Below, in pieces: positions 4,108 to 39,101 of a stretch of 64,000 nucleotides of DNA. The stretch covers positions 17,272-81,271 of the IMG/VR virus record IMGVR_UViG_3300010430_002753. One strand, 5' to 3'. The notes beneath the pieces were generated by a model. That model was not told where the DNA came from. It did no database searches and worked only from the letters and a program-made list of their open reading frames with translations. Both the position numbers and the translations under genes were made by a program. Position 1 is the first letter of the stretch. Each line of letters opens with the position of its first letter. This DNA comes from a virus.

Positions 4108-5490
4108 TTATCTTTTTTGGTTATTATACATTTTTTTCTCTAAACTATCAGGTCCAAACATATTTGAAATTAAATCATCAATTGATATATATTCTTTTGC
4201 TACTTTATTATTTTGTTTATCAATATTTATAACAGGTATTTCAGATTTTGCTTGTTTTACTGAACATGGTTCATAACCAAAATGTTCATTAATTAGTTTA
4301 CATTGATTTACATTAGCAGTAATTCCAATACTATTTAAAAAATCATATGTATTATGAACTAATTCTGAAACGCAATTATATGTTTTTCCATCAATTGTCA
4401 TATTCATATTAGTATCTAGTTGATCACTTTGTTTTACTTCTACTAAATAATGTTTTACACCTTTAATATTAATTGTTTGCATATGTTCTTCCTTATTTTT
4501 ATTTATTTTTTTATTAAATTCTTCTTTTGTATATTCTTTACTGTTTATATAATATAATTCACTTATTATTTCTCCATCTTTATAATACCAAATTGAAGCT
4601 GGGCCGTCTAATCTATGAACTTCGTCTTTAGAATTATAATAACATTCATAATTTATTTTAGTTCTTTTATTATCAAAATAATTATAAATTTTATAATTTC
4701 CATTATCTAATAATTCTTTAGTTATATAATCATCAAGTATTATTATATTATTTCGTTTATTAAGAGCAACAACTTCTTGTCTAGTATCAAACTCTTGTTT
4801 TAGATATGTTTTATTGTTTATCCAATAGTGTTCACCTATAATTTCTCCAGATTTTGTATACCAAATTGTTGCTGGACCATTAATTCTATGTCTTTTACCA
4901 TTTTTATAAAATTCTAGTTTTTTAACAGTTTCACAATTTTTATAATATTTAATAACTGCTGGTTTATTTTTTCTATTAAACATATTATTATTGTTAAAAT
5001 AATATTCACCAATAATTTTAGTTTTATCTTTATTTAAATATTTTGTTATTTTATAATTACCGTTTTCTAATAATTCTTTATCTTCTAATTCTTTATAATC
5101 TAATTGATTTATTTTTTTATTATTAACTTTATTATGCCATTCTTTTCTAGTTAATTTTTTACCATCTAAATAATATTCAGATAAGTTATAACCAATAAAA
5201 GCTGGGCCATTTTCTCTATGAAGTTTATCATTAACATAATACCATTCAGCTATTACTTTATTTTTTTCATCATATAATATTTTTGCTGGACCTTGTTTTT
5301 TATCTAATTTATTTTTTCTAATCCATTGTTCTTCTGTATATCCATTTTCAAAAACAGATATTACAGCAGGTCCATTCTGCCTATCAATTTCTTTATTTTT
5401 ATTATAATACGTTGTAACTGTGTAATCAGATCCTTCTTCTACATATATAATTTTAAAACTTCCATTTTTAAAAGTTATAGTTTCAATCAT
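4108..5490 (-). CDS. Multi-copy HRLDGPA-repeat (MORN-variant-like) protein with extra C-terminal domain
   Basis: Repeats DRQNGPA, DKKQGPA, HRENGPA, NRKNKPA, HRINGPA, HRLDGPA; start moved to the ATG at 5490 after GGAGG. Confidence 0.8.
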   Translation of the reverse strand: MIETITFKNGSFKIIYVEEGSDYTVTTYYNKNKEIDRQNGPAVISVFENGYTEEQWIRKNKLDKKQGPAKILYDEKNKVIAEWYYVNDKLHRENGPAFIGYNLSEYYLDGKKLTRKEWHNKVNNKKINQLDYKELEDKELLENGNYKITKYLNKDKTKIIGEYYFNNNNMFNRKNKPAVIKYYKNCETVKKLEFYKNGKRHRINGPATIWYTKSGEIIGEHYWINNKTYLKQEFDTRQEVVALNKRNNIIILDDYITKELLDNGNYKIYNYFDNKRTKINYECYYNSKDEVHRLDGPASIWYYKDGEIISELYYINSKEYTKEEFNKKINKNKEEHMQTINIKGVKHYLVEVKQSDQLDTNMNMTIDGKTYNCVSELVHNTYDFLNSIGITANVNQCKLINEHFGYEPCSVKQAKSEIPVINIDKQNNKVAKEYISIDDLISNMFGPDSLEKKMYNNQKR

Positions 5491-16314: not shown

Positions 16315-17844
16315 TCATACTAAGTATCCAATGTTTTTATAATATTGCGTTTCTTGTATTATTTGTTCTTGAGTAGCTTTACCTTGTCTAATTTTAAAAA
16401 CTTTCATAAGTCCGTTAAACCAAGCAGTTGTCATATCCCCTCTAGTACCTAATGCAATATTACTAACGCCTCCATACCCAGACACAACATCACTTGTCCC
16501 AATAGAATTACTATCTACAAATACTTCATATGTTTCGGTATTCATATCCCAAACAATATCAAATTTATGTGCTTTGTTGTCTTTATAATTATTAAGATTG
16601 CCAACAGTTTTTGATCTCATCCAAAATATATCATCACTTAAAAATAAGATCCAATCACTAGCATAAGATCCACCTAATACATGGGCTTGTGAAGCTGCAT
16701 AACCAGAACCTATATTATTTGATAATTCTGTTATTGCAGTTAATGTAAAATCTATAGTTTCTGTTAAATCTATATTGATGCCTGTATCTATATATGCAGT
16801 ATTTGTATTTTTAAAGTAAACACCTTGATTTAAAAAATCAACATCTACGATTGCTTGGGTTATTTCAGGAGATGTTGCATTAAAAGCACTTTTATTTTTC
16901 TTGAAATCGTATTCCATGATAGGAGTAAGTTCAGCTGCTTTTAATTCTATAAATTCAAATCTTGTAATATTTGTAGTTCCTGCGTCAGCATTTCTTAAAT
17001 AAAATCCACTATTTTTTCCAATAACTTGTTCATCAAACACAAAAGTTCCTGTAAGAGCGCCAGTATAGTATCCACTAAAACTATCATCACCAACTCTAAA
17101 TTCAGTTGATGTAGTATTACCTTCTATAATTAATCTATATTTATTACCATTGACAATGGAATAATCCTTTTTAACTCCACCTGCTGCTGTTGTCGTAAAA
17201 CTATCATTATCTCCTATTGCTCCACCAACCATAGACCAACCACTAGTAAAATCCCAATTTAATACTATATTTTCCCCATACCCGGCTGTATTTGTAATAC
17301 CTTTATGTAATTTATTATTATATAATAATTCTACTTCTTCTGCTGTTAATGCTTTGTTGTATATTTCAAACAAATAAAAATCACCAACAAAATCAAAAGC
17401 AAGCCCTCCGTTTGTTCCAATAGTAAACGGATTAAGACCGCTACCATAATCTAATATTATATCTGATATTACAATGTCGTAATCTTGCCCAATAACAATA
17501 CTACTACTTGTTGACCCATCAACATATGAGATTCCAGATGAAATTAATATACTATCGTCAGCTTCAATACTACCTAATCCTTTACCATCAAAGTTTTTTG
17601 TTCTAAAATCAAATAATACTCTTGCTATATCATTATTAGTGCATTTACCTTTTATTCTAACACTGTAATTGCCTTTATGTCTTTTTTGATAAATTATAGA
17701 TGAAGTAGATAAACTAAAACTACCAACACCATTACTCAAACTAACATCAGTCGGAGTTCCTCCATTTTTATGAATTGCGTCAAAACTATTAAATGTTTCA
17801 CGAAACACACAACTTTTTTCTATATTATATAAACTTTCTTTCAT
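16315..17844 (-). CDS. LamG/concanavalin A-like domain virion protein
   Basis: FVGDFYLFEIYNKALTAEEVELLYN and WFNGLMKVFKI motifs. Confidence 0.7.
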   Translation of the reverse strand: MKESLYNIEKSCVFRETFNSFDAIHKNGGTPTDVSLSNGVGSFSLSTSSIIYQKRHKGNYSVRIKGKCTNNDIARVLFDFRTKNFDGKGLGSIEADDSILISSGISYVDGSTSSSIVIGQDYDIVISDIILDYGSGLNPFTIGTNGGLAFDFVGDFYLFEIYNKALTAEEVELLYNNKLHKGITNTAGYGENIVLNWDFTSGWSMVGGAIGDNDSFTTTAAGGVKKDYSIVNGNKYRLIIEGNTTSTEFRVGDDSFSGYYTGALTGTFVFDEQVIGKNSGFYLRNADAGTTNITRFEFIELKAAELTPIMEYDFKKNKSAFNATSPEITQAIVDVDFLNQGVYFKNTNTAYIDTGINIDLTETIDFTLTAITELSNNIGSGYAASQAHVLGGSYASDWILFLSDDIFWMRSKTVGNLNNYKDNKAHKFDIVWDMNTETYEVFVDSNSIGTSDVVSGYGGVSNIALGTRGDMTTAWFNGLMKVFKIRQGKATQEQIIQETQYYKNIGYLV

Positions 17845-20976: not shown

Positions 20977-21002
20977 CTTCTTGTCTTCTCCAATTGTATA
21001 TT

Positions 21003-21341
21003 TTAGTTGTCAAATAATTTTGGTCCTTTTTTAATATATCCAACAGCAAAACCTGACGCTAATTGAATATCTGAAAAACTTCCGTATAATACAAATCCAG
21101 CTGGAAATGTATATAATGTTATATATGAAGATAAATTGCTATCTACTTCTTCTTCATCAATTAAACTTGCAAATTCTGAATCATTTATAAATTGTATTGC
21201 ATAATATCTTTGTGTTGTTTCTATTGGTGTATTTGCATCAAAATATTTTCTTAATGCTCCTGGACCCATACCAGCATTTAACGTTTCTGCAACTGTATAT
21301 GGATCTTCATCATATTTAACATTTGGATTATATCCATTCAT
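21003..21341 (-). CDS. Putative virion structural protein (MNGYNP N-terminus)
   Basis: TFPAGFVLYGSFSDIQLASG motif; AAGGAG RBS. Confidence 0.6.
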   Translation of the reverse strand: MNGYNPNVKYDEDPYTVAETLNAGMGPGALRKYFDANTPIETTQRYYAIQFINDSEFASLIDEEEVDSNLSSYITLYTFPAGFVLYGSFSDIQLASGFAVGYIKKGPKLFDN

Positions 21342-21436
21342 AATATATATTCTCCTTTAAAACTTATCTTTTCTTCTTTATATTATATAAATATTAAATA
21401 AATACATTTTTAATATAATAAGTTTTAAACGAAAAA

Positions 21437-21468
21437 AAGCCTATTACTAAATTAATAGTAATAGGCTT
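21437..21468 (-). terminator. Intrinsic terminator ending the tRNA transcript
   Basis: AAGCCTATTACTA/TAGTAATAGGCTT stem followed by a T tract. Confidence 0.75.
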
Positions 21469-21480
21469 AATATAAAATTT

Positions 21481-21556
21481 TGGAGACTGAGTAGGGAATT
21501 GAACCCTAAAATAACAATTTTGCAGACTGCTCCCTTGACCATTCGGGCACTCAGTC
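21481..21556 (-). tRNA. tRNA-Cys(GCA)
   Basis: Cloverleaf; anticodon loop CTGCAAA; encoded CCA. Confidence 0.9.
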
Positions 21557-21588
21557 ATAATTATGTGTGTAATATTTATAAATAAAAA

Positions 21589-21665
21589 TGGGGTGAAGGA
21601 GGAGGCTTGAACTCCCATATGCTGGATCCACAATCCAGTGCTTTACCAATTAAGCTACCTACACC
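21589..21665 (-). tRNA. tRNA-His(GTG) with encoded G-1 and C73
   Basis: Loop TTGTGGA; 5' G-GTGTAGG pairs with CCTTCAC-C-CCA. Confidence 0.92.
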
Positions 21666-21672
21666 ATAAAAG

Positions 21673-21759
21673 TACCTCTGACAGGGGTCGAACCTGTACG
21701 CTCCATTACAGAACCCTGGATTCTAAGTCCAGGATGACTACCAATTCCAACACAGAGGC
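21673..21759 (-). tRNA. tRNA-Leu(TAG), CCA not encoded
   Basis: Loop CTTAGAA, long variable arm; 3' end reads A-CT. Confidence 0.9.
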
Positions 21760-21820
21760 GTATATAAAAAATTTATTTTGTTTATGAATCATAACTTTCT
21801 TTTTGAAGCATTTTTACATC

Positions 21821-22060
21821 TTACTGCTTAAATAATATATCATCCATAATATCTAATATTTCTTGTTTGAATATTGTCCATACTTGTATATAAGGAATAT
21901 AATATTTTTCATACCTTTGTTTAGAATAATTTGCGGTATTTTCTTTGTAACTTTCTAAATGAATATCTATTAATTGGATTAAATGATTTAATTTACATAT
22001 ACTTAATTTTTTTAATTTTGATATTCTTTTAGGGTTTACACGTAATTTTATGATATCCAT
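21821..22060 (-). CDS. Hypothetical protein
   Basis: ORF with AGGT RBS. Confidence 0.55.
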   Translation of the reverse strand: MDIIKLRVNPKRISKLKKLSICKLNHLIQLIDIHLESYKENTANYSKQRYEKYYIPYIQVWTIFKQEILDIMDDILFKQ

Positions 22061-22069
22061 AAATTATAC

Positions 22070-22876
22070 CTACTTATATAATTTTAAAAATTTAAAAAAT
22101 TTTGGCCATTCTCTTCTAGGTTTCAATACTAATATAACTTCTTTCTTATCGAATTGTAATTCAGTAATTACAAACCAATCATCGCCAAAAGTTTTTGCTT
22201 TTTCAAATTGTTCTTCAGTTACTTTACAAGTAACTTTTCTAAATGAATCAGAATACCACTCTTGCATAATAGGATCACTATATTCTGGCCAATGTTTATT
22301 AATGGCACATCCAGCATGAGTAGCACTATTAATTGAATGTCCAACATCTACCCAATCTTTAATTAAAACATACATTTTTAAAGGCTGTACAGCATTTTTA
22401 TTGTCGTCTGTTATTTTCATACAATGATTCCAAGCTTCTACTGTATATCTATTTCCTTCTAAATAATTATTATAATCTGTTTTAGCGAATGCAATACATG
22501 AGTTATCGTCATTAATATGAATAACGTATCTTTTTTGACTTTTAATATATTCATTATTCCATACATGCATTAATTTAACATCTGTTTTAAATGTTTTATT
22601 ATTTTTTAATTTCATATTATTTTCCAATAGTTCTTGAGATTTTTCATAATCATAACTAATATACCAATTTGGATAAAAACATGGTTCGTGTTTAGAATTA
22701 AAAATTTTAGTTACTGTTTCCCAATAACTTTCTTCTTGTTCTAACTTTTCATCATTATGCCATATCCTAAATATATCTTCAACTTCACAATATTCAACAC
22801 CAATACATAGATCTGGATAAATATTTTTAATTTCTTCTATACCATCATTAATACCGTTTATTAATTTATGATCCAT
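22070..22876 (-). CDS. Fusion protein with C-terminal Pth2-like peptidyl-tRNA hydrolase domain
   Basis: C-terminal about 100 aa: KMYVLIK...GHSINSATHA...W...FRKVTCKV...LVLKP...LKLY, matching the Pth2 pattern. Confidence 0.7.
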   Translation of the reverse strand: MDHKLINGINDGIEEIKNIYPDLCIGVEYCEVEDIFRIWHNDEKLEQEESYWETVTKIFNSKHEPCFYPNWYISYDYEKSQELLENNMKLKNNKTFKTDVKLMHVWNNEYIKSQKRYVIHINDDNSCIAFAKTDYNNYLEGNRYTVEAWNHCMKITDDNKNAVQPLKMYVLIKDWVDVGHSINSATHAGCAINKHWPEYSDPIMQEWYSDSFRKVTCKVTEEQFEKAKTFGDDWFVITELQFDKKEVILVLKPRREWPKFFKFLKLYK

Positions 22877-23013
22877 TATAATTCCTTATTCAACTTCTAT
22901 TAATTCAAAATTAGCAAAATCATATATTTTATTATTTAACATAAAGAATTTAAAATTAAATTCATTAATATTATATTCATATTAACCTCTATTATAAATT
23001 TTTTATTATAAAC

Positions 23014-23042
23014 ATTATATTGTATAATTAAATAAATGTCAA
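23014..23042 (-). promoter_or_regulatory. Sigma70-type promoter (repeat family)
   Basis: TAGTTGACA-N17-TATAAT. Confidence 0.8.
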
Positions 23043-23050
23043 CTAATAAA

Positions 23051-23470
23051 TTATATTTTTTTATTTAATAATCCTTCATATACTTTTCTATAACATAACA
23101 TATTAGGAATATATCTACTATTATTTCCAAAATATTCTGAATCATCACCATTAAAATAATTAGATATAGCTGCAGCAACACCAGAACTTCTAGAAATTCC
23201 AGCATCACAAGATATAATAAAATCTTTATTTATATTACTTAAAATAAATTCTATAATACGATCAACATCATTATCAGAAATTGTATTATATTTATCTATT
23301 TTTTCTTCTATATCATAAAATCTTAAATATATTATATCACATCTATTTTCATTTTTAAATTCAGTAAACATAGATGGATCTTGTATTGATATAATACAAA
23401 CATCTTTATCTATTTGTTTATTAAATAACTTATTCTGCAAATCTAATTTTGATAAAACTTTTATATTCAT
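23051..23470 (-). CDS. Cys-dependent (tyrosine/dual-specificity) phosphatase-like protein
   Basis: CX5R-type loop SCDAGISRS; IISIQDP; LRFYDI; PNML. Confidence 0.85.
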   Translation of the reverse strand: MNIKVLSKLDLQNKLFNKQIDKDVCIISIQDPSMFTEFKNENRCDIIYLRFYDIEEKIDKYNTISDNDVDRIIEFILSNINKDFIISCDAGISRSSGVAAAISNYFNGDDSEYFGNNSRYIPNMLCYRKVYEGLLNKKI

Positions 23471-23496
23471 TAATTATACCTCCATAACTTAAAAAA

Positions 23497-23573
23497 TGGT
23501 GGGCCTTGTTGGACTCGAACCAACGACTTCCTGTTTATGAGACAGGATTTCTAACCAACTGAAATAAAGGCCC
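23497..23573 (-). tRNA. tRNA-CAT, probably Ile2 (lysidine) rather than Met
   Basis: Loop CTCATAA; acceptor GGGCCTT/AAGGCCC-A-CCA is Ile-like. Confidence 0.85.
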
Positions 23574-23574
23574 G

Positions 23575-23647
23575 CTTCCCAGACAGGATTTGAACCTGCA
23601 ACAATTGGATTAGAAATCCAATGCTCATCCACTTGAGCTTCTGGGAT
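23575..23647 (-). tRNA. tRNA-Arg(TCT), CCA not encoded, abuts the next tRNA
   Basis: Loop TTTCTAA; 1:72 mismatch; about 1 nt from the 5' end of tRNA-CAT. Confidence 0.82.
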
Positions 23648-23754
23648 ATAAAAATAAAAGAAGATAATTTAGTAGTCCAAAATATCTTCAAGAACACTTA
23701 TCAATTTGAGCTTCATTTTATAGAGAGGCTTAATAAGTTTATTTTATAGTAAAA

Positions 23755-23842
23755 TGGCGGAGATTATAGGACTCGAACCTATATATCCTTTTCAGAACGC
23801 TAGATTAGCAATCTAGTGCAATACCAATTATGCGAAATCTCC
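23755..23842 (-). tRNA. tRNA-Ser(GCT)
   Basis: Loop TTGCTAA, long variable arm, G73, CCA. Confidence 0.9.
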
Positions 23843-23848
23843 AAAAAT

Positions 23849-24172
23849 TTATTTATTTTTTATAAATATTCTTAAACATTCTTTTTTCCAATCAAATCCC
23901 CATTGTCGAATACCAATTATGTTAGATCTTAAGTCTTCAAGTATATTATTTATTTCATATTTTTCTGTTTTTTCTAGTTTGCTATTATTAATAATATTTT
24001 GAATTTTATTTATTGACGGACATTGCATTTGTGGAGATTCATCTATATTAAAATAATTATCTATATTAGGTTTTTTACCAATAATCTTATAAAAATTATC
24101 TCTTAATGTTTTATAATATATTATTGAATTATATCTAAGTATTTTAACAAATAATCGTTTTAAATATTTCAT
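23849..24172 (-). CDS. Hypothetical protein (start at MKYLKR, not inside the tRNA)
   Basis: AGGAG RBS before the ATG; the ORF-track extension runs into tRNA-Ser. Confidence 0.6.
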   Translation of the reverse strand: MKYLKRLFVKILRYNSIIYYKTLRDNFYKIIGKKPNIDNYFNIDESPQMQCPSINKIQNIINNSKLEKTEKYEINNILEDLRSNIIGIRQWGFDWKKECLRIFIKNK

Positions 24173-24189
24173 ATATCTCCTATTAAAAA

Positions 24190-24275
24190 TGGCAGAGAAG
24201 GTGGGATTCGAACCCACGGAGCCGTCACTCACTGGTTTTCAAAACCAGCTCCTTAAACCACTCGGACACTTCTCT
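24190..24275 (-). tRNA. tRNA-Ser(TGA)
   Basis: Loop TTTGAAA, long variable arm, G73, CCA. Confidence 0.92.
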
Positions 24276-24290
24276 ATATTAAAAATTTGT

Positions 24291-24487
24291 TTTCTTTTAG
24301 ATAATGATCTATCATAACAAATATAATTTAACATCTAATTCTACTAGTTTAAATTAGACTTTATATTTACAAGAATCTACACAACTCTCTTATCAAGATA
24401 TTGGCTACGCCAGTTTTTGGTCTATTATATTAATTACTCTAGAAATAAATTAATACGATATTTTTCAAGATCATTATCTAAAAGAAA
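24291..24487 (-). ncRNA. Candidate structured RNA or hairpin element closed by a 20-bp perfect inverted repeat
   Basis: TTTCTTTTAGATAATGATCT...AGATCATTATCTAAAAGAAA with internal hairpins; no ORF. Confidence 0.45.
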
Positions 24488-24488
24488 T

Positions 24489-24564
24489 TGGTGGAGCTGG
24501 TCGGACTTGAACCGACGGCCTTCTGCTTGCAAAGCAGACACTCTTCCAACTGAGTTACAACCCC
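24489..24564 (-). tRNA. tRNA-Ala(TGC)
   Basis: Loop TTTGCAA; G3:U70; CCA. Confidence 0.93.
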
Positions 24565-24572
24565 ATTTTAAT

Positions 24573-24713
24573 TTAATCATTTAAATTTTGTTTTAAATAT
24601 TTACGTAAAGATTTTCTACCTTTTTTCTTAAACCAACGTTTATTCTTTGTATGACATTCATCTGGATGCGCTGGTCTTTTTCTTGAATATAATTTCTTTG
24701 TCGATTTCTTCAT
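24573..24713 (-). CDS. 46-aa very basic protein MKKSTKKLYSRKRPAHPDECHTKNKRWFKKKGRKSLRKYLKQNLND
   Basis: Below the ORF-track cutoff; GGAAGG RBS; translated by hand. Confidence 0.6.
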   Translation of the reverse strand: MKKSTKKLYSRKRPAHPDECHTKNKRWFKKKGRKSLRKYLKQNLND

Positions 24714-24725
24714 AATATAACCTTC

Positions 24726-24914
24726 CTATAAATCAAATTGTTTATAATATTTTTCGTCAGACATACTTATTAAATATCTAATTTCTTTATTTACTTGTTG
24801 CAATTTAATAATATATTCTGATTCTTTCTCCCAAAATGAATTTGAAAGGTGTTTTGTTTTAGAATCTTTTACAGACTGTTTAAGTGATTCTAACAATTCT
24901 TTTGTTCTTTTCAT
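24726..24914 (-). CDS. Hypothetical protein
   Basis: ORF with AAGGA RBS. Confidence 0.55.
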   Translation of the reverse strand: MKRTKELLESLKQSVKDSKTKHLSNSFWEKESEYIIKLQQVNKEIRYLISMSDEKYYKQFDL

Positions 24915-24925
24915 TAATAATTTCC

Positions 24926-25462
24926 TTATTTTTTATAACTAATTCTAAAGCTATAACATATTATGGAAGAATAATCAAAAAGACTATTTACGGCAGATCT
25001 GTTTAACATTTCATTAATCAATTTATGCCTTGATATTTTTTCTTTATCATATAAATGACTCCATAATAAACATACATTATTTATATGTATTAGACCCTCA
25101 ACTCTTTCATCGTTGGAAGGGATTTTATCTAGTTCATATATTAGATTATTATTTTTGAAATACTTATTCAATAATACATTTACAACTACATGATACTCTT
25201 GATATCCACCACCTACTGTTATGTTAAGAAACATGCATTTATCTTTATTAGCTTTTAGTTGATTTATCATATCTAAAGTATCTAACACTTCATAAAGAAC
25301 ATATTGGTTACTTTCAATAATAGATAAAAACTCTTTTTCTATATCTGAGATTTCAGCACTTAGTGTTGATTTATACTCTATTTCTTTTTGTATTCTCTGG
25401 TTTTCCATTATTGTAGATATATTAAAATTTCTGTTGAGTAAAAGTAATGGCATTGCAAACAT
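24926..25462 (-). CDS. Hypothetical protein inserted in the tRNA array
   Basis: 178 aa ORF, AGGAG RBS. Confidence 0.6.
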   Translation of the reverse strand: MFAMPLLLLNRNFNISTIMENQRIQKEIEYKSTLSAEISDIEKEFLSIIESNQYVLYEVLDTLDMINQLKANKDKCMFLNITVGGGYQEYHVVVNVLLNKYFKNNNLIYELDKIPSNDERVEGLIHINNVCLLWSHLYDKEKISRHKLINEMLNRSAVNSLFDYSSIICYSFRISYKK

Positions 25463-25500
25463 TTCAAGCTCCTATTTTGGACAAATTGTCAATATGAAAA

Positions 25501-25576
25501 TGGAGCGAACAGAGGGACTCAAACCCTCAACCAGTAGATTGGAAATCTACCGTTCTATCAATTGAACTATGCTCGC
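25501..25576 (-). tRNA. tRNA-Gly(TCC)
   Basis: Loop TTTCCAA; U73; CCA. Confidence 0.92.
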
Positions 25577-25590
25577 ATAAAATTTAAGAG

Positions 25591-25662
25591 TAGAAAGAAT
25601 AAGACTTGAACTTATAATATTGGTTCTTCAAACCAAGGTGTTACCAATTACACTATCTCTCC
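25591..25662 (-). tRNA. tRNA-Phe(GAA), CCA not encoded
   Basis: Loop TTGAAGA; acceptor GGAGAGA/TCTTTCT-A. Confidence 0.75.
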
Positions 25663-25674
25663 AAATGTTTATTA

Positions 25675-25980
25675 TTATAAATAATCTCTTAAATCTATTC
25701 CACTACATAAATTATAATAATGATAAATTTGTTCACCTACGGATTTATAAAGTCTATAATCTTGTTCTTGTGAATGATCAGTTAATTCTAATGTTCTATT
25801 GTTATGAGCTTTATTATCAAATATTTTAGCAAATTCTTTTAAAGTATCATTATTTAATTCAATATTTTGATTATTATTAATAACTTCAATTGCTTTTTTA
25901 ATACCTTCAATAATTCCCTTTTGTCTATACTCTTCATATTTATCAAGATACTCGCATCTTTGACTAAATGTAACGTCCAT
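25675..25980 (-). CDS. Hypothetical protein
   Basis: ORF with GGAGG RBS. Confidence 0.65.
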   Translation of the reverse strand: MDVTFSQRCEYLDKYEEYRQKGIIEGIKKAIEVINNNQNIELNNDTLKEFAKIFDNKAHNNRTLELTDHSQEQDYRLYKSVGEQIYHYYNLCSGIDLRDYL

Positions 25981-26151
25981 AAAACCTCCATTAGTTAAAA
26001 AATGTCTCCAACATTTGGACTGTTTACCACTCTTATGGTTATCTATACGCAGAGTATATAGAAGAGTTTGTTCTTATAAGATTAATCAAATTTAAGGAAT
26101 TTAAACCTATTGCTTGATTAAACAGAGTATCAATATTGATATTTTAAATTT

Positions 26152-26237
26152 TGGTGGCACCACTAGGAATCGAACCTAGAAACCTCTCGGTTACGGATTT
26201 ACAATCCGCTGAGTTCACCATACTACTCAATGATGCC
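26152..26237 (-). tRNA. tRNA-Tyr(GTA)
   Basis: Loop TTGTAAA; variable arm; CCA. Confidence 0.9.
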
Positions 26238-26244
26238 GTTAAAA

Positions 26245-26334
26245 TGGTGGGAAGTTGTGGAATCTAACCACAATACCTAAATAGGAGCGGGTGCACATTA
26301 TCGCTTGAGATAACAATATACTCAATACCTTCCC
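26245..26334 (-). ncRNA. tRNA-like RNA with intact acceptor, T and variable arms and CCA but a disrupted anticodon arm
   Basis: GGGAAG/CTTCCC-A-CCA; T arm TGTGG-TTAGATT-CCACA; anticodon region pairs only GCG/CGC. Confidence 0.65.
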
Positions 26335-26339
26335 AAAAA

Positions 26340-26418
26340 TGGCCAGGCGTATGGGATTTGAACCCATGATCTCTACCGTGACAGGGTAGCGTCATAAACC
26401 AAACTAGACTAACGCCCG
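26340..26418 (-). tRNA. tRNA-Asp(GTC)
   Basis: Loop CTGTCAC; G73; CCA. Confidence 0.92.
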
Positions 26419-26450
26419 ATTAAAATCATTTAATAAAAAATTAATAAAAA

Positions 26451-26530
26451 TGGTTGGGTAGCTCAGATTTGAACTGAGGATTTGTTGGTCCCAAACCAAC
26501 CGTCATAGACCTAACTAGACCACTACCCAA
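26451..26530 (-). tRNA. tRNA-Pro(TGG)
   Basis: Loop TTTGGGA; CCA. Confidence 0.9.
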
Positions 26531-26548
26531 TAAAAATTTAATATAAAG

Positions 26549-26621
26549 CAGACCATAAAGGACTTGAACCCTTATCTCAGGATTTGGAATCCCACATTCT
26601 AGCCAATTGAACTAATGATCT
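26549..26621 (-). tRNA. tRNA-Trp(CCA), CCA end not encoded
   Basis: Loop TTCCAAA; 3' end reads G-CT. Confidence 0.85.
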
Positions 26622-26628
26622 ATAAAAA

Positions 26629-26713
26629 TGGTGATCCCAGTTGGACTCGAACCAACGCTGTCAAAGACTCCTGCTTAAAAGGCAGGTGCGTTACCAACTA
26701 CGCGTATAGGATC
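26629..26713 (-). tRNA. tRNA-Lys(TTT) with extended variable arm
   Basis: Loop CTTTTAA; extra GTC-TTT-GAC hairpin; CCA. Confidence 0.9.
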
Positions 26714-26760
26714 ATTTATTTAAATTAATTTATAAATTAAAATAAATTAATTTAAATAAA

Positions 26761-27235
26761 GATCTCAGGTTTAAGGATTTTCGACCCAGAGATCTGAGTA
26801 TCTCCATGCTATTAGATTGATCAATCTGATAAGTTCTTATAGTGTGTTTTACAGCAGAACTTATTAATGTTCTTAAATTTGCAATGCTATTTCATTAATA
26901 GAGTTTGTTACGTTTCTATTAATAGGCATATATTTTCTATTGCTAATTCCTGAAACTGTTCACACAATAACCTGACCAATAGAATCAATGTTTGCGTCAA
27001 TCCAACTCAAAGTAACAATACTGAGTTAGTTATCTCATTGCCTCGCCTTTCCGAGTTAAAAATTGTAACTGGCACGAAAGAATGCTTTAATCTATATTAA
27101 GCTATCAATTAAATTATTTGAATAAACAAACTTTTCAATTTTGTGGGATTAGATAATCACCCATATCTTTCTTCGTGAGAGTTATTTCTTTCGAGTCAGC
27201 CAACTAGAACTAGTCTAGGATGAGCTTCGATACTT
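26761..27235 (-). ncRNA. Candidate large structured ncRNA (about 470 nt) within the tRNA array
   Basis: No ORF; GC above background; 5' AGTATC pairs with near-3' GATACT; many internal hairpins; terminal GATCTC/GAGATC hairpin. Confidence 0.6.
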
Positions 27236-27247
27236 TTTAAATAAAAA

Positions 27248-27326
27248 TGGAATCGCAGATGGGAATCGAACCCACAAACTTTACCGTGAAAGGGTAATGA
27301 CTCTAACCTAATTCGTCTACTGCGAC
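27248..27326 (-). tRNA. tRNA-Glu(TTC)
   Basis: Loop CTTTCAC; CCA. Confidence 0.88.
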
Positions 27327-27414
27327 ATAAAAATATTTCAATATTAATATCTAATAAAACATTTATAGTTGTATTAGCATTTATAATTATCTTCCATATT
27401 GAAATATTTTAAAA

Positions 27415-27489
27415 TGGTAGCGGAGATGGAATTCGAATCCATATATCACGGGATATGAACCCGTTGAGTTGCCAGTACTCTACTCCGCT
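27415..27489 (-). tRNA. tRNA-fMet(CAT), initiator type
   Basis: Three consecutive G:C pairs in the anticodon stem (ACGGG/CCCGT); CCA. Confidence 0.88.
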
Positions 27490-27495
27490 ATAAAA

Positions 27496-27571
27496 TGGCT
27501 AACCAGGTGGGACTTGGACCCACATACTTTCGATTAACAGTCGAACGCTAAACCAATTTAGCTACTGGTCA
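27496..27571 (-). tRNA. tRNA-Asn(GTT)
   Basis: Loop CTGTTAA; U1:A72; G73; CCA. Confidence 0.9.
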
Positions 27572-27577
27572 ATAAAA

Positions 27578-27663
27578 TGGTATTCCCAATAGGACTTGAA
27601 CCTATACACCATAAAGATACAAGATCTTAAATCTTGTGTGCCTACCAATTACACCATGGGAAC
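27578..27663 (-). tRNA. tRNA-Leu(TAA)
   Basis: Loop TTTAAGA; long variable arm; CCA. Confidence 0.9.
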
Positions 27664-27719
27664 ATAAAAATATTTATTTAAATTAATCTACAAATTAAAA
27701 TAAATTAATTTGAATAAAA

Positions 27720-27796
27720 TGGAGCCAAATCTCGGACTCAAACCGAGGACCCGATGCTTACAAGGCAACTGCTCTAATCAACTGAGCTAATTTGGC
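27720..27796 (-). tRNA. tRNA-Thr(TGT)
   Basis: Loop CTTGTAA; CCA. Confidence 0.9.
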
Positions 27797-27806
27797 ATTA
27801 AATATA

Positions 27807-27895
27807 TTATTTGCGGTAGGTAGGATTCGAACCTACGATACTTTCATTTGTATGAATGTGTTTTCCTTTTACACTATCTATAGTTCCGCAAATAA
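27807..27895 (-). ncRNA. Aberrant tRNA-like RNA (shrunken anticodon loop, bulged and extended closing stem, no CCA)
   Basis: Canonical T arm GTAGG-TTCGAAT-CCTAC; D-like arm; TTCAT-ACAA-ATGAA hairpin; TTATTTGCGG/CCGCAAATAA closing stem. Confidence 0.6.
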
Positions 27896-27900
27896 AAAAG

Positions 27901-27971
27901 TTAGTCTGTGTAGAATCGAACTACAACTATTAGGACCAAAACCTAATGCACTACCATTATGCAACAGACCA
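27901..27971 (-). tRNA. tRNA-Gln(TTG), CCA not encoded
   Basis: Loop TTTTGGT; U1:A72. Confidence 0.85.
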
Positions 27972-28150
27972 TCAAAAAATATAAAGCAATAGGAATTATT
28001 CACATGTTTCTATGACTTTGAACTGCGTCAAATGATTTTTTCAATAATTCTAAACCAATATTTTTACTATTACTATAATTTATTTTAAATTATTCACAAA
28101 TATTACACATCTATGCTTTTGTTTAAGATCTAATTTTTAATTTCTTAGTC

Positions 28151-28178
28151 ATTATAATTTGATTAAAGATTCTGTTAA
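28151..28178 (-). promoter_or_regulatory. Promoter of the tRNA array (variant -35 TTAACA)
   Basis: TTTTTTAGTTAACA-N16-TATAAT; near copy of 28503-28530. Confidence 0.7.
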
Positions 28179-28207
28179 CTAAAAAATTATTTTTTTTTTA
28201 CAATAAA

Positions 28208-28232
28208 AAAAGGAGGTTTTTTCAACCTCCTT
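28208..28232 (-). terminator. Intrinsic terminator
   Basis: AAGGAGGTT/AACCTCCTT stem followed by a T tract. Confidence 0.75.
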
Positions 28233-28502
28233 ATATATAATTTTGTTTATTAATTTTTATATTTTTAGAGGTATTTAAATATATCATGATCAAATTTGGC
28301 AGGTGTATTTACACAATTAGATTCACTAGTATATAATGATTGATAACTTGTTCTACCAACTAATTCTTTGAGTGTAAGTCCTATTAAATTTTGCCAAACG
28401 TTCATGATTTTTATTTCCTTTATTTTTTTCATTCTAATATAAATATATGAAAAAAATATTTTTATACATTTTTTTAAAGATCTAATTTTTAATTTCTTAA
28501 TC

Positions 28503-28530
28503 ATTATAATTTGATTAAAGATTCTGTCAA
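28503..28530 (-). promoter_or_regulatory. Sigma70-type promoter (repeat family)
   Basis: TTTTTTAGTTGACA-N16-TATAAT. Confidence 0.8.
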
Positions 28531-28538
28531 CTAAAAAA

Positions 28539-28901
28539 TTATTTTTTATTTAATAATTTTAAATTTCTATTAATATTTCTAAATTTAATAACTTCTGGGC
28601 GTTTATAGAACTCTTCTTTTGAATAACTTTTACCATTGATATAATAATATGCATGTTCTATTTCTCCAGATCTATTATACCAAATCATTGCTGGTCCATT
28701 TAATCGGTGTCGTTTTCTATTTATACAATATTGCATAGCTTCTATTTTGCCAGATTTATAATATTTAATCTCTGCGGGACCATATAAATTGTGAATATAA
28801 TCATTTTTGTTATAATACATATCATGCATAATTTTAGTATCTTTATCATCATAATATACAATTCTTCTGTAATTACCATTTTCTAATTCAATTCTTTTCA
28901 T
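28539..28901 (-). CDS. HRLDGPA-repeat protein with C-terminal tag
   Basis: HNLYGPA, HRLNGPA; ends NINRNLKLLNKK. Confidence 0.85.
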   Translation of the reverse strand: MKRIELENGNYRRIVYYDDKDTKIMHDMYYNKNDYIHNLYGPAEIKYYKSGKIEAMQYCINRKRHRLNGPAMIWYNRSGEIEHAYYYINGKSYSKEEFYKRPEVIKFRNINRNLKLLNKK

Positions 28902-28928
28902 AAATTAAACCTTATTGAAGTTAATATT

Positions 28929-29438
28929 TTATTTTTTATTGATAAGTTTAATTCTATTTTCCATATAATCACAAAATTCAGCAAATCTACTATTAGGTGT
29001 AATATAACCATTAAAATCGTGTTGTAATACTCCTAATTCAATAAATGCTACTATAAAATGATTAATATTTTTTGTTGAATCTCCATAAATATGATAACTT
29101 AATTCTTCGATTTTTGCGCCACCATTGTCAGAAATATATTCAATTATTCTTTTATAAAATGTTTCTTTTCTTCCACTATTAAATATTGGAGTATTAAACA
29201 TAAATTTATTTTCATATTTAAATGGTGTTTGACTATTTATATTAATTTTTTTATTAAAAAATGATGTTAATTCATCTTTATCATAACCAATTTGTTTAAA
29301 TTTATTTTCAATACAATTAAAGTTATTTGTTAAAGCATTAATTGCATTTTTTGCAGTTAATCCTAAATTTTTTTGTAAAAAAATTCTAGCTTTTGCAGGT
29401 TCAATCCAATTTCCAAAATCAATTTTTTTATTTCTCAT
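28929..29438 (-). CDS. Hypothetical protein, possibly winged-helix (start at MRNKK)
   Basis: GGAG RBS before ATG 29438; the longer ORF-track start lies inside the promoter; ends ENRIKLINKK. Confidence 0.65.
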   Translation of the reverse strand: MRNKKIDFGNWIEPAKARIFLQKNLGLTAKNAINALTNNFNCIENKFKQIGYDKDELTSFFNKKININSQTPFKYENKFMFNTPIFNSGRKETFYKRIIEYISDNGGAKIEELSYHIYGDSTKNINHFIVAFIELGVLQHDFNGYITPNSRFAEFCDYMENRIKLINKK

Positions 29439-29810: not shown

Positions 29811-31439
<1,629 letters not shown>

Positions 31440-31462: not shown

Positions 31463-32326
31463 TTAAAATTCTAATTTCCATGTTTTTACGCCATGTAATT
31501 CTCTATCTTCCTTATAAAATGAATCTGTTGTATATATTTTATTGTAAAAAAATAATAACTTATAAGATCCCTTTGAAAAAATACCATGCGATACATATGT
31601 ATATTTATTTTTAAAATTTAAAGTATCTAGTAATAAACCAGTATCTTCTAATGAACTCCCAGTTTCACATATATCATCAAAAACTATTGCTACACCATCA
31701 CTATAATCTTTTACATCTGGTAATATATCAAAATCTAAATTTATAACTTCTTTAGTTTTAGAATCTCTAATTTTTTTCATACCGATAAATTTTATTTCTT
31801 TATCAGGATATCTTGATTCTGCAAATTGGCATAGTGAAGCTAATCTTGGAATAGCACCTTTATCAGGTGCTACAAAATATAATGTTTTAACTTCTTTATT
31901 TAAATTAATAATATCATTTATTGTCTTATCAATATAAGTATAAGCATTTATTAAATTACAGTTTTCTAATGATTCATAAACTACTTGTGAATGTGGATCT
32001 AAAATACTAACAGATTCGTACATTTGAAAATTTATTAATTCTGTCATAGCCTTTACTGAAAATGCTTCTCCTTCTACAAATATTTTATCTTGTCTTGCAT
32101 ATGGAAAATAAGGAATAGTTAAATGTATATTTGGATAATTGTATTCTAAATTTCTTATAGCATTAGTAACTAATAATAATTTAAGTATATCATTAGAATT
32201 TCTTATATTTGCTATAATATTAATATCAATATCATCTACATCAACTAATTCTGTTATACCACCAATATGGACTTCTCCACCATTAAATAGTTTTGATTTA
32301 ACATCATCTAATTTAATATTTTTCAT
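31463..32326 (-). CDS. prs: Ribose-phosphate pyrophosphokinase-like protein (phage Prs/Adps-like)
   Basis: [40 protein letters not shown] and YTTDS motifs. Confidence 0.88.
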
Positions 32327-34865: not shown

Positions 34866-36914
34866 TTAAAATTTAATTTTTAATATTCTGTTAAAATTAC
34901 CTTCAACTTTAACAACCAATTCATTTCTTTTAGTTTCTGAAAATCCTAAACCAGATAATTGATTATCAGAATATTCAGCTGACATTTTTGATCCTAATGC
35001 TTCAAATAATCGTTTATTTGACATTAACTCTTCATTTAAAAATTCATTATAGAATCCTCTAGTTCTAACAGGATTTTTACAATCTTTTAAAAAGAATAAA
35101 TAATGTTTATTGCCCGTAGTTTTGTTATCCCAATAATTTGGACTATACATAATAGTTGAAACATCTACAAAATTATTAGTTTTAATATTCCAAATATCTT
35201 TTGAAGAACATGAACTCTCAATTAATGGTTCAACTATAAACTCACCATTTTTAAGTGTTACGTTTGCAACTTTTACAGTTTGGTCATTACGTAATTCTTT
35301 ATTGTATGAAAATTCATAAATTTTTCCATCAACTTCTAATTCAGCTGTAAATCCTGTTTTACCACCATTATGAGAATAATTATGAACTGATAATATATAT
35401 TTTCCTTCATCCATTGTATGTTTATTTGGGAATGTTATGTTTTCAACTGCTCCATTTGGTGCTTGAGTATATGGTCGCCTTATATCAACATCTAATTGAC
35501 CGCCATTGCTCATTTTACAAGGTTTTTTATATGTATTAAACGCTATTGTTTTTCCACAAGGACATTTTAAATGAGCGTCAAAATCATTATTATTTTCATT
35601 ATTGTCGTTCCACATTATACTATATCTAAAATCACCGTCAACTGCACCACCAAACTTTTTAACTAATTTTTTCATTGAACTATCTGCAATGTTACCATTG
35701 TAACTCCAACAAAAATTATTATCCCATTTAAACATTGATTTAGAATCTTTATTTTGTGGACCAATAAGACTAACTAAGTTATTAGTATGTTTACTATCTA
35801 ATAATACTTTAATATTTTTAGATTTAGGCAAAACATCGTTAATAAAATCTGTAATACTAATTTCTTCAACTTTATCAAATTTCTTTGGATTTTCAGTTAC
35901 TTCAGATTTTAATTCATCAAAAATAGATGTATTTACTTTTTCAACATCTCTATTAATATAAATAATATTATTTGCTGTGATATCATCCAATGTTGCAAAT
36001 TTTCTTTGTAGTGAATCTTCAAAACCTAATTCTTTAATTTGTTGTTCAGCTTTTTCTACCATCTTTTTTGTAAAAATTGCTTTAGGTCTTTTGTAATTTT
36101 CAGGTGCTACAACATTTTTTTCATATTTCCTTACTGCTTCATTTATATCTACATTATTTGACAAATCTATTAATAATGTTCCAATTGCAGAATTTCGTAT
36201 TCTACATACTCTATTATCAATTGAATTTTTCCAATACCAATTATCATTTTCTACATGTAATTTTTTATATTTCAAAAATTCTTCAATTGAAATTTTATAT
36301 TCAATACCTTTATATAATGATTTTTGTGCAATCAATTCTAAAATAGTTTCAGCTGCATCTACTGTTAATTCTGTCATTGCTCTTTGTAATAACTGTTTAT
36401 TTTCTTTATGTTTACCTTGAATAGCTTCAACAGAATATCGTAAATTGCTACTAACAAATTTATTAGGTAATACTAAGTTAAAATGGTCCCAAGAAATAGT
36501 TGAATTGTCTTCTAACAATTCTTTATTATTTGCTGTTCCTAACTTATTATTAATTGTAATAAATTTATTATAAATTACTTTAGAATCAATATAATTTTTT
36601 AATTCTTTTGCAACAATATTGTATGGATATTCTAAATCTTCAATATCCCAAATATTTTTAGTTTCATTATTTGAATCAATAATAACAATATTTCCAAAAT
36701 GTTGAATAAATTGTCTACAACATGAACAATCAAATTCTCTATGTTCTCTGTAGATCTCATTAGTTCCTTCTGGAAATGAATCAAGATATAAATTCCAAAA
36801 TTTTTCTTTGTCAATATTTGCTAAAAATAAATGTTTTTCATCTTTAGAAATATTTGTAAATCTTTCTTGAACTGCTTGTTTAAACTTAATAAAATCTGCC
36901 ATGTTTTCCTCCAC
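34866..36914 (-). CDS. Large phage hypothetical protein with a YfaP/DUF2135-like domain
   Basis: DCSCCRQF N-terminal motif; DFDAH...LDVD...AVENI motif. Confidence 0.7.
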   Translation of the reverse strand: MEENMADFIKFKQAVQERFTNISKDEKHLFLANIDKEKFWNLYLDSFPEGTNEIYREHREFDCSCCRQFIQHFGNIVIIDSNNETKNIWDIEDLEYPYNIVAKELKNYIDSKVIYNKFITINNKLGTANNKELLEDNSTISWDHFNLVLPNKFVSSNLRYSVEAIQGKHKENKQLLQRAMTELTVDAAETILELIAQKSLYKGIEYKISIEEFLKYKKLHVENDNWYWKNSIDNRVCRIRNSAIGTLLIDLSNNVDINEAVRKYEKNVVAPENYKRPKAIFTKKMVEKAEQQIKELGFEDSLQRKFATLDDITANNIIYINRDVEKVNTSIFDELKSEVTENPKKFDKVEEISITDFINDVLPKSKNIKVLLDSKHTNNLVSLIGPQNKDSKSMFKWDNNFCWSYNGNIADSSMKKLVKKFGGAVDGDFRYSIMWNDNNENNNDFDAHLKCPCGKTIAFNTYKKPCKMSNGGQLDVDIRRPYTQAPNGAVENITFPNKHTMDEGKYILSVHNYSHNGGKTGFTAELEVDGKIYEFSYNKELRNDQTVKVANVTLKNGEFIVEPLIESSCSSKDIWNIKTNNFVDVSTIMYSPNYWDNKTTGNKHYLFFLKDCKNPVRTRGFYNEFLNEELMSNKRLFEALGSKMSAEYSDNQLSGLGFSETKRNELVVKVEGNFNRILKIKF

Positions 36915-37700: not shown

Positions 37701-39101
37701 TTAAACCTTATTTAAAAGTTTTAATAATTCTTCTTTAGATATATTAGGATTTTCCATAAAAATATCTTCAGCTTTTCTCATATACTCACCAACTTTAATT
37801 CCTGGTTTAATATTAAATGTATTAATAATATCTTTTCCAGAAATAGGCATTGATACTGGTTCATGTTTTTCTTTTAGTTCAGCAATTCTTTTTGCTATAT
37901 TCGGAACTTGATAAGGTAAACAATGTTCAGGTGCATGAGAAATATTATCTGCGTGAATAACTTCTAATAATTCTGTTAATAGATTACCTGATAATTTAAT
38001 TAACTTTCTTATTGATTTATCTTTAATGTTTAAAGTTTCATTTCCCCATTGTTTAGTATGCATATGATTTTTGACAATAAAAGAAACACTATCAACTATT
38101 TCATTCTCATACTTTAATCTTTTTAAAATATCAATAACCATAGTTTCACTAAGAGTATTATGATCTATAAAACTATAATCATTTTTATCAGAATTCCATA
38201 CTCTAGTTTTTAATTTACCAATATCATGTAATAACGCAGATAGTCTAACAACTAATTTATTTTCATTTTCTAGTATTGGTTTTTTAACAACGGCTTGTAA
38301 TACGTCAAATAAATGATTAAATAAATCTGCAGAATGATATTCGTTTTGTTTAAAATCTATAGTTTCAATTAATTCTGGAATAATATAATTAATTAATCCA
38401 GTTTTTACTAAATAATATAATCCATTTAAACAATTATCAGATAACATTATTTTTGTAAATTCACTATTAATTCTCTCTTTTGATAAAATTTCTGTAGATT
38501 TATAATTTCTAATTATTGAATCGTATACATCTTTAGTTAATTTAAATCCTCTTGTAGAAAATCTAATAGCTCTTAACATTCTTAAAGGATCTTCTTTAAA
38601 AATACTATCAGGATCTGATGTTGTATTTAAAACATTATTACCTAAATCATTAATACCATTTCCAGTAAAATCTTCTAATTTATTTAAAGATATATTATAC
38701 ATTAAAGAATTAATAGTAAAATCTCTTCTTACTGCATCTTGCTCTATTGTTCCAAATTTAACTAATGGTTTTCTACTACCTTCTTCATACGCTTCTTGCC
38801 TACTCATCACAGATTCAAAATCTAAATCACTATTAGGTAATCTAAAATTAGCAGTTCCAAATCTTCCAAAGATTACTGGATTGCTATCTTTTTTATATAC
38901 TCCTAATTTCCTTGTTAAATATTCTGCTAATGCAACACCACCCATTGGTAAATTTACAACAATATCAATATCTTTAATTTCTTTCTTTTTTAACAAAATA
39001 TCTCTTACCGCGCCACCTACTATATATACCTTATTCTCAAATTGAGTATCTATAATATGCTTATTGATACTTTCAGATATTTTAAATAATCTTTCTAACA
39101 T
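37701..39101 (-). CDS. cca: CCA-adding tRNA nucleotidyltransferase with HD domain
   Basis: VGGAVRD, DIDIV, RRDFTIN, EDPLRMLRAIRF, ERINSE and LLHDIGK motifs. Confidence 0.93.
   Translation of the reverse strand: MLERLFKISESINKHIIDTQFENKVYIVGGAVRDILLKKKEIKDIDIVVNLPMGGVALAEYLTRKLGVYKKDSNPVIFGRFGTANFRLPNSDLDFESVMSRQEAYEEGSRKPLVKFGTIEQDAVRRDFTINSLMYNISLNKLEDFTGNGINDLGNNVLNTTSDPDSIFKEDPLRMLRAIRFSTRGFKLTKDVYDSIIRNYKSTEILSKERINSEFTKIMLSDNCLNGLYYLVKTGLINYIIPELIETIDFKQNEYHSADLFNHLFDVLQAVVKKPILENENKLVVRLSALLHDIGKLKTRVWNSDKNDYSFIDHNTLSETMVIDILKRLKYENEIVDSVSFIVKNHMHTKQWGNETLNIKDKSIRKLIKLSGNLLTELLEVIHADNISHAPEHCLPYQVPNIAKRIAELKEKHEPVSMPISGKDIINTFNIKPGIKVGEYMRKAEDIFMENPNISKEELLKLLNKV

Follow-up and report, generated by a model that had tools for sequence, protein, structure and literature searches.

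What does a phage keep between two neighboring tRNA genes when these lie more than 500 nt apart and no gene fills the space? We address this question for a 534-nt gap (26714-27247) between tRNA-Glu(UUC) and tRNA-Lys(UUU), and in particular for its 475-nt core (26761-27235, hereafter also called the element), in a very AT-rich, uncultured phage known from the IMG/VR viral record IMGVR_UViG_3300010430_002753. The record is a contig of 81,271 bases with a G+C content of 23.9% and a completeness estimated at 33% (CheckV). Our analysis covers a window of 64,000 nt, i.e., the whole stretch of DNA under study (positions 17,272 to 81,271 of the record), and all coordinates are positions within this window unless the whole contig is named. 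A preliminary description, made from the sequence alone, had presented the core as a highly structured non-coding element, either a compact member of the ROOL or GOLLD class of large RNAs or a new large RNA. Herein, we report that the gap is genuine and clearly non-coding, and that the G+C content of its core points to constraint or recent import. Our tentative preference is for a non-coding RNA specific to this lineage, or for a short row of hairpin modules, kept by selection.

A genuine and non-coding gap

The minus strand carries nearly all long open reading frames (ORFs) of the contig and also all 21 tRNA genes that ARAGORN places at 21481-27971; with Rfam at gathering thresholds, we recover these 21 tRNAs and no other family in the window. 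The gap lies inside this co-oriented array, between the two minus-strand neighbors that the preliminary description had named, and no other non-coding stretch of the contig is as long (the next longest gap measures 293 nt). Apart from short A/T words, its core is unique in the contig. The sequence is not an assembly artefact, because in two sets of DNA data (runs X1 and X2) contigs are identical to the gap over the parts they cover, and reads of run X3, which stems from a different study, match 26811-27099 with three differences. The sequencing runs that contain the sequence are marine-sediment and sediment metagenomes.

The earlier impression of a stretch free of ORFs holds up well: a single ORF of at least 30 amino acids (aa) lies inside the gap (26908-27000), and the longest stop-free frame largely inside it spans 53 aa (26730-26891). 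Stop-codon reassignment is rejected as a way around this, since each of the six frames holds at least six TAA codons as well as TAG and TGA, so that no alternative code opens a frame. The 3-base periodicity signal of the gap (0.51, compared with a genome median of 5.2) falls into the lowest 1.8% of windows and resembles that of tRNA-dense windows. A codon log-odds score trained on 48 long ORFs separates true from wrong frames (11.1 ± 4.3 and -11.6 ± 6.5 per 90 nt, respectively). With stops ignored, the best frame of the gap reaches -0.91, compared with -0.66 ± 1.17 for dinucleotide shuffles, and 57% of the 500 shuffles score at least as high. The gap is thus clearly non-coding.

A decayed protein gene, which the preliminary description had named as one outcome that would speak against an RNA, was looked for both with these codon scores and with a protein family profile, and it was not found. 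The occasion for the profile is an exact 20-mer, the one match that scans of viral contigs yielded for words of the element (metagenome contigs yielded none). It is shared with an unrelated viral contig (L101, 46% G+C), where it lies within a 55-aa ORF (5257-5424, plus strand) behind tail-fibre-like genes. The family of this ORF consists mostly of proteins of 53-74 aa, with 76 representatives at E ≤ 0.001, and has a weak match to Pfam XkdW (PF09636; E 0.076). A profile of the ORF and 70 members was searched against 5344 six-frame pieces, the best of which in the whole contig scores 7.3 bits (E 0.99). The piece of the element at 27138-27203 (minus) scores 0.1 bits (E 170), on which a decayed gene of this family is rejected, and the upstream piece is not among the matches listed above -0.2 bits. 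Peptide likeness flanking the 20-mer was seen by eye in two frames; tblastn finds only the 9 residues of the shared word, and Pfam finds nothing in the two frame pieces of the element around it. Given that a very large collection was scanned, we take the 20-mer to be a chance match.

Base composition of the core

The raised G+C content noted in the preliminary description is confirmed (0.324 in the core and 0.239 in the contig), and its weight becomes apparent once it is set against the base composition that this phage adopts where little constrains it. In the 48 long ORFs, G+C amounts to 0.355 at first codon positions, 0.101 at third positions, and 0.073 at fourfold-degenerate sites; unconstrained DNA of this phage is thus driven to extreme A/T. 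For comparison, coding DNA has 23.9% G+C, and the median of the 22 non-coding gaps of at least 80 nt is 19%. Of 3232 windows of 475 nt, only 2.6% reach the value of the core; these are located within the tRNA array or next to it (~21.3-22.0 and 25.9-28.0 kb), in the gene for GroEL, among genes at 13.8-18.7 kb, and where the window begins. Among the other gaps, G+C of at least 29% is found only at 26238-26339 and at 27797-27899, the latter containing a tRNA-like sequence (25 bits, sub-threshold).

With 32.4% G+C against 7-10% at neutral sites, the segment is either under selection or too recently imported to have decayed, and in this sense its composition points to constraint or recent import. 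Regarding the first option, an earlier study reports that structured RNAs are strongly enriched in the long, GC-enriched intergenic regions of AT-rich genomes (PMC2704228).

Known RNA families and the search for relatives

The gap is a member of no described RNA family. At E ≤ 10, Rfam 15 yields 12 matches on 26600-27400. Two are the flanking tRNAs; the other ten are weak and unrelated, the best of them scoring 26.2 bits against a gathering score of 59. The Rfam search proposed in the preliminary description (ROOL, GOLLD, OLE, and group I/II introns) gave no match. For ROOL (RF03087) there is no match of at least 99.1 bits in the window and none at E ≤ 10 on 26600-27400; none at E ≤ 10 was found on the 81-kb contig either, in a run that matched 0 of 14 control genomes and so had no positive control. 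GOLLD (RF02032) likewise has no match of at least 150 bits in the window and none at E ≤ 10 on 26600-27400 or on the whole contig, for which nine first-look candidates were scored. RNase P RNA, group I/II introns, OLE, and 6S RNA have no Rfam match on 26600-27400 at E ≤ 10 or at gathering score, and no tRNA or tRNA-like pseudogene (RF00005) occurs inside the gap at E ≤ 10. For tmRNA (RF00023 and its clan) we obtained no ARAGORN call, no Rfam match at E ≤ 10, and no tRNA-like end. The preliminary description was thus right to set aside tmRNA and RNase P RNA. A compact ROOL or GOLLD is not borne out, as no Rfam 15 family except tRNA reaches its gathering score and both models stay empty at E ≤ 10.

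A further lead, that of a tmRNA-like tag RNA or a hijack of tmRNA, was rejected with the help of four tmRNAs of Cloacimonadota, the suggested host phylum (see below). No stop-to-stop frame of the gap ends like their ANxxxxLAA tags, and pairing with these tmRNAs is matched by 8-77% of 100 shuffles (duplexfold, a blunt tool on long RNAs).

Searches for the sequence itself covered a broad range of genomes. No match to the gap was found among 50,697 phage records (blastn, distant mode), nor by nhmmer in 80 GroEL loci or 19 loci derived from CCA-adding enzymes. BLAST gave E values of 0.1 or worse in four related viral records and of 0.36 or worse in two Cloacimonadota genomes. In a set of 232 Cloacimonadota genomes, 12 have scattered, A/T-rich matches of 20-45 nt and none has a longer one; two of the contigs concerned, both short, were checked for CRISPR-like repeats, and none were seen. 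The related records searched have no comparable tRNA array (one record in a set of four has two tRNAs, and record G237 has none), and the tRNA arrays of records G238-G240 show no similarity to the element.

The proteins of the phage give an idea of how far away its relatives are. The ORF at 24926-25462, a neighbor within the array, matches only itself among 5.8 billion proteins. The best identities are 46% for the DnaB-type helicase, 48.5% in phage records and 54% elsewhere for a 682-aa protein with PF26675, and 52% and then 38% for the CCA-adding enzyme.

A proposed spacer RNA kept by selection

That an RNA is released from the gap and kept for a purpose seems to us the most likely reading, because of the compositional constraint, even though we hold it only tentatively. 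The context agrees with it, as the gap sits within 21 co-oriented tRNAs bracketed by promoter- and terminator-like sites. On the minus strand, promoter-like sites are found upstream of the array at 28178-28151 and 28530-28503 and a terminator-like site past the last tRNA at 21468-21437; no promoter-like site on this strand falls within 26714-27247 among the best 60 of 76 sites. Since the gap lies inside a co-oriented array with such sites at either end, it would be transcribed as part of a minus-strand tRNA operon running from 28178-28151 to 21468-21437.

In general, maturation of flanking tRNAs releases the RNA between them, which here would measure ~0.5 kb. The spacer RNA would be freed by 3' trimming of tRNA-Glu together with RNase P cleavage at the 5' end of tRNA-Lys, the latter setting its 3' end, and a 19-bp A/U hairpin near that end may offer an extra site for double-strand cleavage. 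What would remain is a core of ~440-475 nt whose ends are joined by a 6-bp helix and whose terminus carries a stable 3' hairpin. Such an RNA would take its place among the stable phage RNAs of tRNA regions, presumably acting on translation or the tRNA machinery during infection. Its carrier is probably a jumbo phage infecting Cloacimonadota.

How well does the predicted fold agree with a selected RNA? The stems listed in the preliminary description are all present (Table 1), i.e., AGTATC/GATACT, ATAAGTTCT/AGAACTTAT (inverted repeat I20), ATTAATAGA/TCTATTAAT (I21), the GATCTC...GAGATC hairpin (I19), CTAGA/TCTAG, which appears in the plus-strand ensemble list, and AACTCA/TGAGTT, which can be read in the sequence. 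The whole gap folds with z = -3.97 on the minus strand and -3.81 on the plus strand, a figure that includes the A/T palindrome at 26715-26760 and is largely owed to it. Judging from its recurrence, this palindrome does not belong to the core but is a repeated spacer element in its own right: a second copy (93.6% identity over 47 nt) lies at 27672-27718 between tRNA-Thr and tRNA-Leu, and the pattern has two matches in the window and none in 100 shuffles. It may serve as a double-strand RNA cleavage site or as a protein-binding site. For the core alone, z is -2.17 (minus) and -2.27 (plus) with 60 shuffles, compared with a mean of -0.57 (standard deviation 1.24) in 22 windows of equal length taken from the contig outside the tRNA array.

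Folding in pieces speaks more in favor of an RNA, with six of eight minus-strand segments beating their shuffles (z -2 to -3.5), although the segment boundaries were picked after inspection of the sequence and these scores are indicative only. The sole clearly minus-specific part is 27000-27068: its minus strand reaches -16.8 kcal/mol (z = -3.53), with none of 200 shuffles doing as well, and its plus strand -8.1 kcal/mol (z = -1.43). The domain at 27069-27199 folds better as plus (z = -2.94) than as minus (z = -2.04), 27200-27235 folded alone is no better than its shuffles (z +0.46), and the terminal helix forms on the plus strand too and so gives no indication of strand. The strand preference of the piecewise folds is thus mixed, as far as such predictions go. 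Over the minus-strand ensemble, only eight helices have a pair probability of at least 0.7, and the plus-strand list is similar. In the global fold, AACUCA/UGAGUU and CUCG/CGAG form hairpins, both of them incompatible with the one at 27001-27060.

The predicted loops offer possible hints of contacts, either tertiary or intermolecular. Two hairpins have 12-nt loops that share a 7-bp perfect complement (inside inverted repeat I23), and a loop-loop complement of at least 7 arises in 1 of 200 shuffles. The minimum free energy fold of the 475-nt core itself gives a best complement of 3, and in the 534-nt fold the first of the two loops is partly paired, which makes this a lead found after the fact. 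In addition, the self-complementary words CUAG and GAUC occur in hairpin loops.

Several observations weigh against a selected RNA and have kept our preference tentative. Three of the 22 background windows have z-scores of -2.2 or lower, so that, for this genome, the core has an ordinary folding energy. Of the 132 perfect hairpins in the contig whose stems reach at least 8, the core holds two, a number matched by 15% of 808 windows, so that its hairpin density is ordinary too. The plus strand folds equally well, and even better in the domain mentioned above, and the middle of the element lacks a well-defined fold in the ensemble. No homologue came out of the phage, viral, metagenome, and 232 Cloacimonadota genome searches. 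Finally, equal G+C is found in GroEL, whose closest relatives are bacterial, and a recent foreign import would also fit.

In short, the core is not demonstrably structured beyond chance by these folding statistics, and the wording "highly structured" of the preliminary description is not confirmed. Its idea of a new large RNA fares better in part: the gap is non-coding, the longest of the contig, and enriched in G+C, whereas the unexceptional fold energy, the missing strand preference, and the lack of a homologue do not help it. The stretch is real, unusual, and clearly non-coding, and its composition makes a good argument for function; an ornate structure is unproven, and we would not yet call the element a discovery.

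Alternative explanations

Next to a selected RNA, the gap could be functionless DNA, an explanation that we consider less likely. The core would then be the remnant of a decayed gene (for instance a small ORF or an insert of the homing-endonuclease type, as found interrupting tRNA arrays of phages) or a recent import of higher G+C, and the spacer RNA, made only on account of its place in the operon, would simply be degraded. The unremarkable structure statistics and the absence of a strand signal agree with this, and so do the ORFs that interrupt the tRNA array elsewhere (25675-25980, 24926-25462, and 22070-22876). The phage has taken up foreign genes, as seen from a GroEL with 72-73% identity to Cloacimonadota in a window of equal G+C, and in the sign of both its GC skew and its AT skew the gap agrees with coding DNA, unlike tRNA-dense windows. 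However, neither periodicity nor codon scores reveal a coding residue, and the sole protein lead, the 20-mer, fails at the family profile. No donor was found in the 232 Cloacimonadota genomes or the phage records, and sequence that has long been dead is expected to be far more A/T-rich than the core. Should this explanation be the right one, the lesson would be that stems visible to the eye and the shuffle z-score of a hand-picked window exaggerate structure at 24% G+C, and that the useful signal in such a genome is G+C relative to fourfold-degenerate sites.

A cis-acting region is less probable still. Here, the 3' hairpin with its U-run would be a terminator or attenuator, albeit a leaky one, and divide the array into Gln-to-Glu and Lys-to-Cys units. 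The hairpins and the palindrome would be entry or blocking sites for RNases and in this way set how much of each tRNA is present relative to the others. The 3' hairpin (-12.1 kcal/mol) is indeed followed by a U-rich run and looks like a terminator or a hairpin that protects a 3' end. The recurrence of the palindrome at a second tRNA spacer suggests a spacer signal, and terminator-like sites are enriched in this region (11 in 21000-29000, compared with 1.8 ± 1.5 in shuffles). Yet a terminator needs ~40 nt and leaves ~430 further GC-enriched nt unexplained, the other 19 tRNA spacers are far shorter, the terminator scan did not call the hairpin, its loop being longer than 8 nt, and no strong minus-strand promoter comes after it.

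A DNA-level element (a replication origin, packaging site, or palindromic cluster for protein binding) would account for the helices of the preliminary description being perfect Watson-Crick inverted repeats, equal on both strands, and for a nearly pure A/T run beside a GC-richer core, but we regard it as very improbable, as there are no iteron-like direct repeats (the sole one is a 16-nt pair of 81% identity), GC skew keeps its sign over 20-30 kb, palindrome density is ordinary for the genome, and GATC and CTAG, each present 3 times where ~1 is expected, are only mildly over-represented.

Features of the gap and its surroundings

The features of the gap are collected in Table 1 in the order of minus-strand transcription.

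Table 1. Positions of the gap, its predicted parts, and the flanking tRNA genes
Feature	Position	Strand	Basis and remarks
tRNA-Glu(UUC), upstream neighbor	27248-27326	minus	ARAGORN; Rfam tRNA, 56 bits; encoded CCA end directly abuts the gap
A/U-only 5' linker, from tRNA-Glu 3' end to terminal helix	27236-27247	minus	Sequence read
Element core, 475 nt, non-coding, G+C 0.324	26761-27235	minus	Coding tests and composition
Terminal helix, 6 bp	27229-27234 (5' strand), 26797-26802 (3' strand)	minus	Pair probability 0.95 (534-nt ensemble)
CUAGA/UCUAG hairpin, 5 bp	27204-27218	minus	Predicted fold
131-nt domain	27069-27199	minus	Closed by 14-position long-range helix (inverted repeat I9)
Irregular hairpin, 22 pairs, 7 of them G.U	27001-27060	minus	Predicted fold
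Hairpin, 10 bp, 12-nt loop	26893-26924	minus	Inverted repeat I21; pair probability 0.93; z = -2.51
Perfect hairpin, 9 bp, 18-nt loop	26829-26864	minus	Inverted repeat I20; z = -2.48
3' hairpin, 7 + 4 pairs, then U-rich run	26760-26795	minus	Inverted repeat I19; -12.1 kcal/mol, z = -2.19
All-A/T perfect palindrome, 19 bp, 8-nt loop	26715-26760	either	Inverted repeat I1
tRNA-Lys(UUU), downstream neighbor	26629-26713	minus	ARAGORN; Rfam

Some details may be added. A second copy of the 5' linker word follows the tRNA ending at 26621 (direct repeat D5). The long-range helix of the 131-nt domain (27186-27199 with 27069-27082) consists, on the minus strand, of 12 Watson-Crick pairs, one A.C, and one U.U. 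The single variant in the list for run X3 (T>C at 26845) sits in the loop of the 9-bp hairpin.

Within the array, tRNA-Lys(UUU) is 85 nt long and has ~10 extra nucleotides in its variable region according to the Rfam alignment; a 25-nt word across this variable arm has no exact match in IMG/VR. Between tRNA-Gln and tRNA-Thr, the tRNA-like sequence mentioned above (27820-27876, minus) has a perfect T arm and a shortened anticodon loop, lies below the RF00005 gathering score of 29, and is not called by ARAGORN. No other non-coding gap has a G+C as high as the 0.38 of the 102-nt gap that separates tRNA-Tyr from tRNA-Asp (26238-26339); the 213-nt gap between tRNA-Ala and tRNA-Ser (24276-24488) has a G+C of 0.21.

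Among the genes of the phage are those for GroEL, ribonucleotide reductase, a DnaB-type helicase, a RecA-like protein, a CCA-adding enzyme, and phosphoribosyl pyrophosphate (PRPP) synthetase. Upstream of the array, on the minus strand, lie the PRPP synthetase-like gene (31463-32326), the gene for the 682-aa protein (34866-36914), which corresponds to PHROG 1735 and is common in large phages, and that for the CCA-adding enzyme (37701-39101). GroEL (29811-31433, minus) is 72-73% identical to Cloacimonadota GroEL, 68% identical to that of two metagenome-assembled genomes (MAGs) of this phylum, and only 52-58% identical to GroEL on other viral contigs. It was probably captured from the host, and its likeness suggests that the host phylum is Cloacimonadota.

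Comparison with known large phage RNAs

If the gap does encode a working RNA, what would be its company? Three groups of RNAs come to mind, and to our knowledge none of them (ROOL, GOLLD, and the T4 RNAs RNAC and RNAD) has a known function. ROOL and GOLLD are both treated in a recent preprint, which describes ROOL as an RNA of phages and prophages whose gene often lies near tRNA islands, and GOLLD as a phage-borne RNA of unknown function that is found in marine samples, also often near tRNA islands, with many members longer than 800 nt (bioRxiv 10.1101/2024.12.08.627333).

As far as that description goes, the resemblance to ROOL is one of location and size: the element is a large non-coding stretch beside phage tRNA genes, lies inside a 21-tRNA array of a viral contig, and measures 475-534 nt (the ROOL model has 574 positions). 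It differs in having no covariance-model match at the thresholds tried and weak thermodynamic support for its fold. Furthermore, ROOL has a conserved fold with multiple pseudoknots and quaternary kissing loops, whereas no homologue of the element was found in the searches above. With GOLLD, whose members have a conserved 3' region (model of 416 positions), it shares, on the same description, the phage location near tRNA genes and the occurrence in marine samples; it lacks a match to the model, and with its 475-534 nt it is shorter than the many GOLLD RNAs that exceed 800 nt. We think it improbable that the core is the founder of a new family of large, tertiary-structured, and possibly self-assembling phage RNAs of the ROOL/GOLLD kind, a suggestion that leans on the 7-bp loop-loop complement described above.

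The tmRNAs offer another case of a large RNA next to phage tRNA genes, and ARAGORN indeed finds tmRNA genes in GroEL-bearing viral loci (L077-L080). Unlike these, the element has neither a tRNA-like end nor a tag frame of the ...LAA type.

In phage T4, RNAC and RNAD would be released from the same precursors as the tRNAs, which is the route proposed here for the spacer RNA. They are small, and the element is several times longer. The account of the T4 tRNA region on which we draw lists them as two RNAs with unknown biological roles (PMC3014915), and in that respect the element resembles them as non-tRNA sequence from a phage tRNA region. If our preferred reading of a selected RNA is correct, an unrelated new family would join the few large phage RNAs beside tRNA genes, from a phage of an uncultivated host phylum whose extreme A/T bias makes compositional constraint unusually readable.

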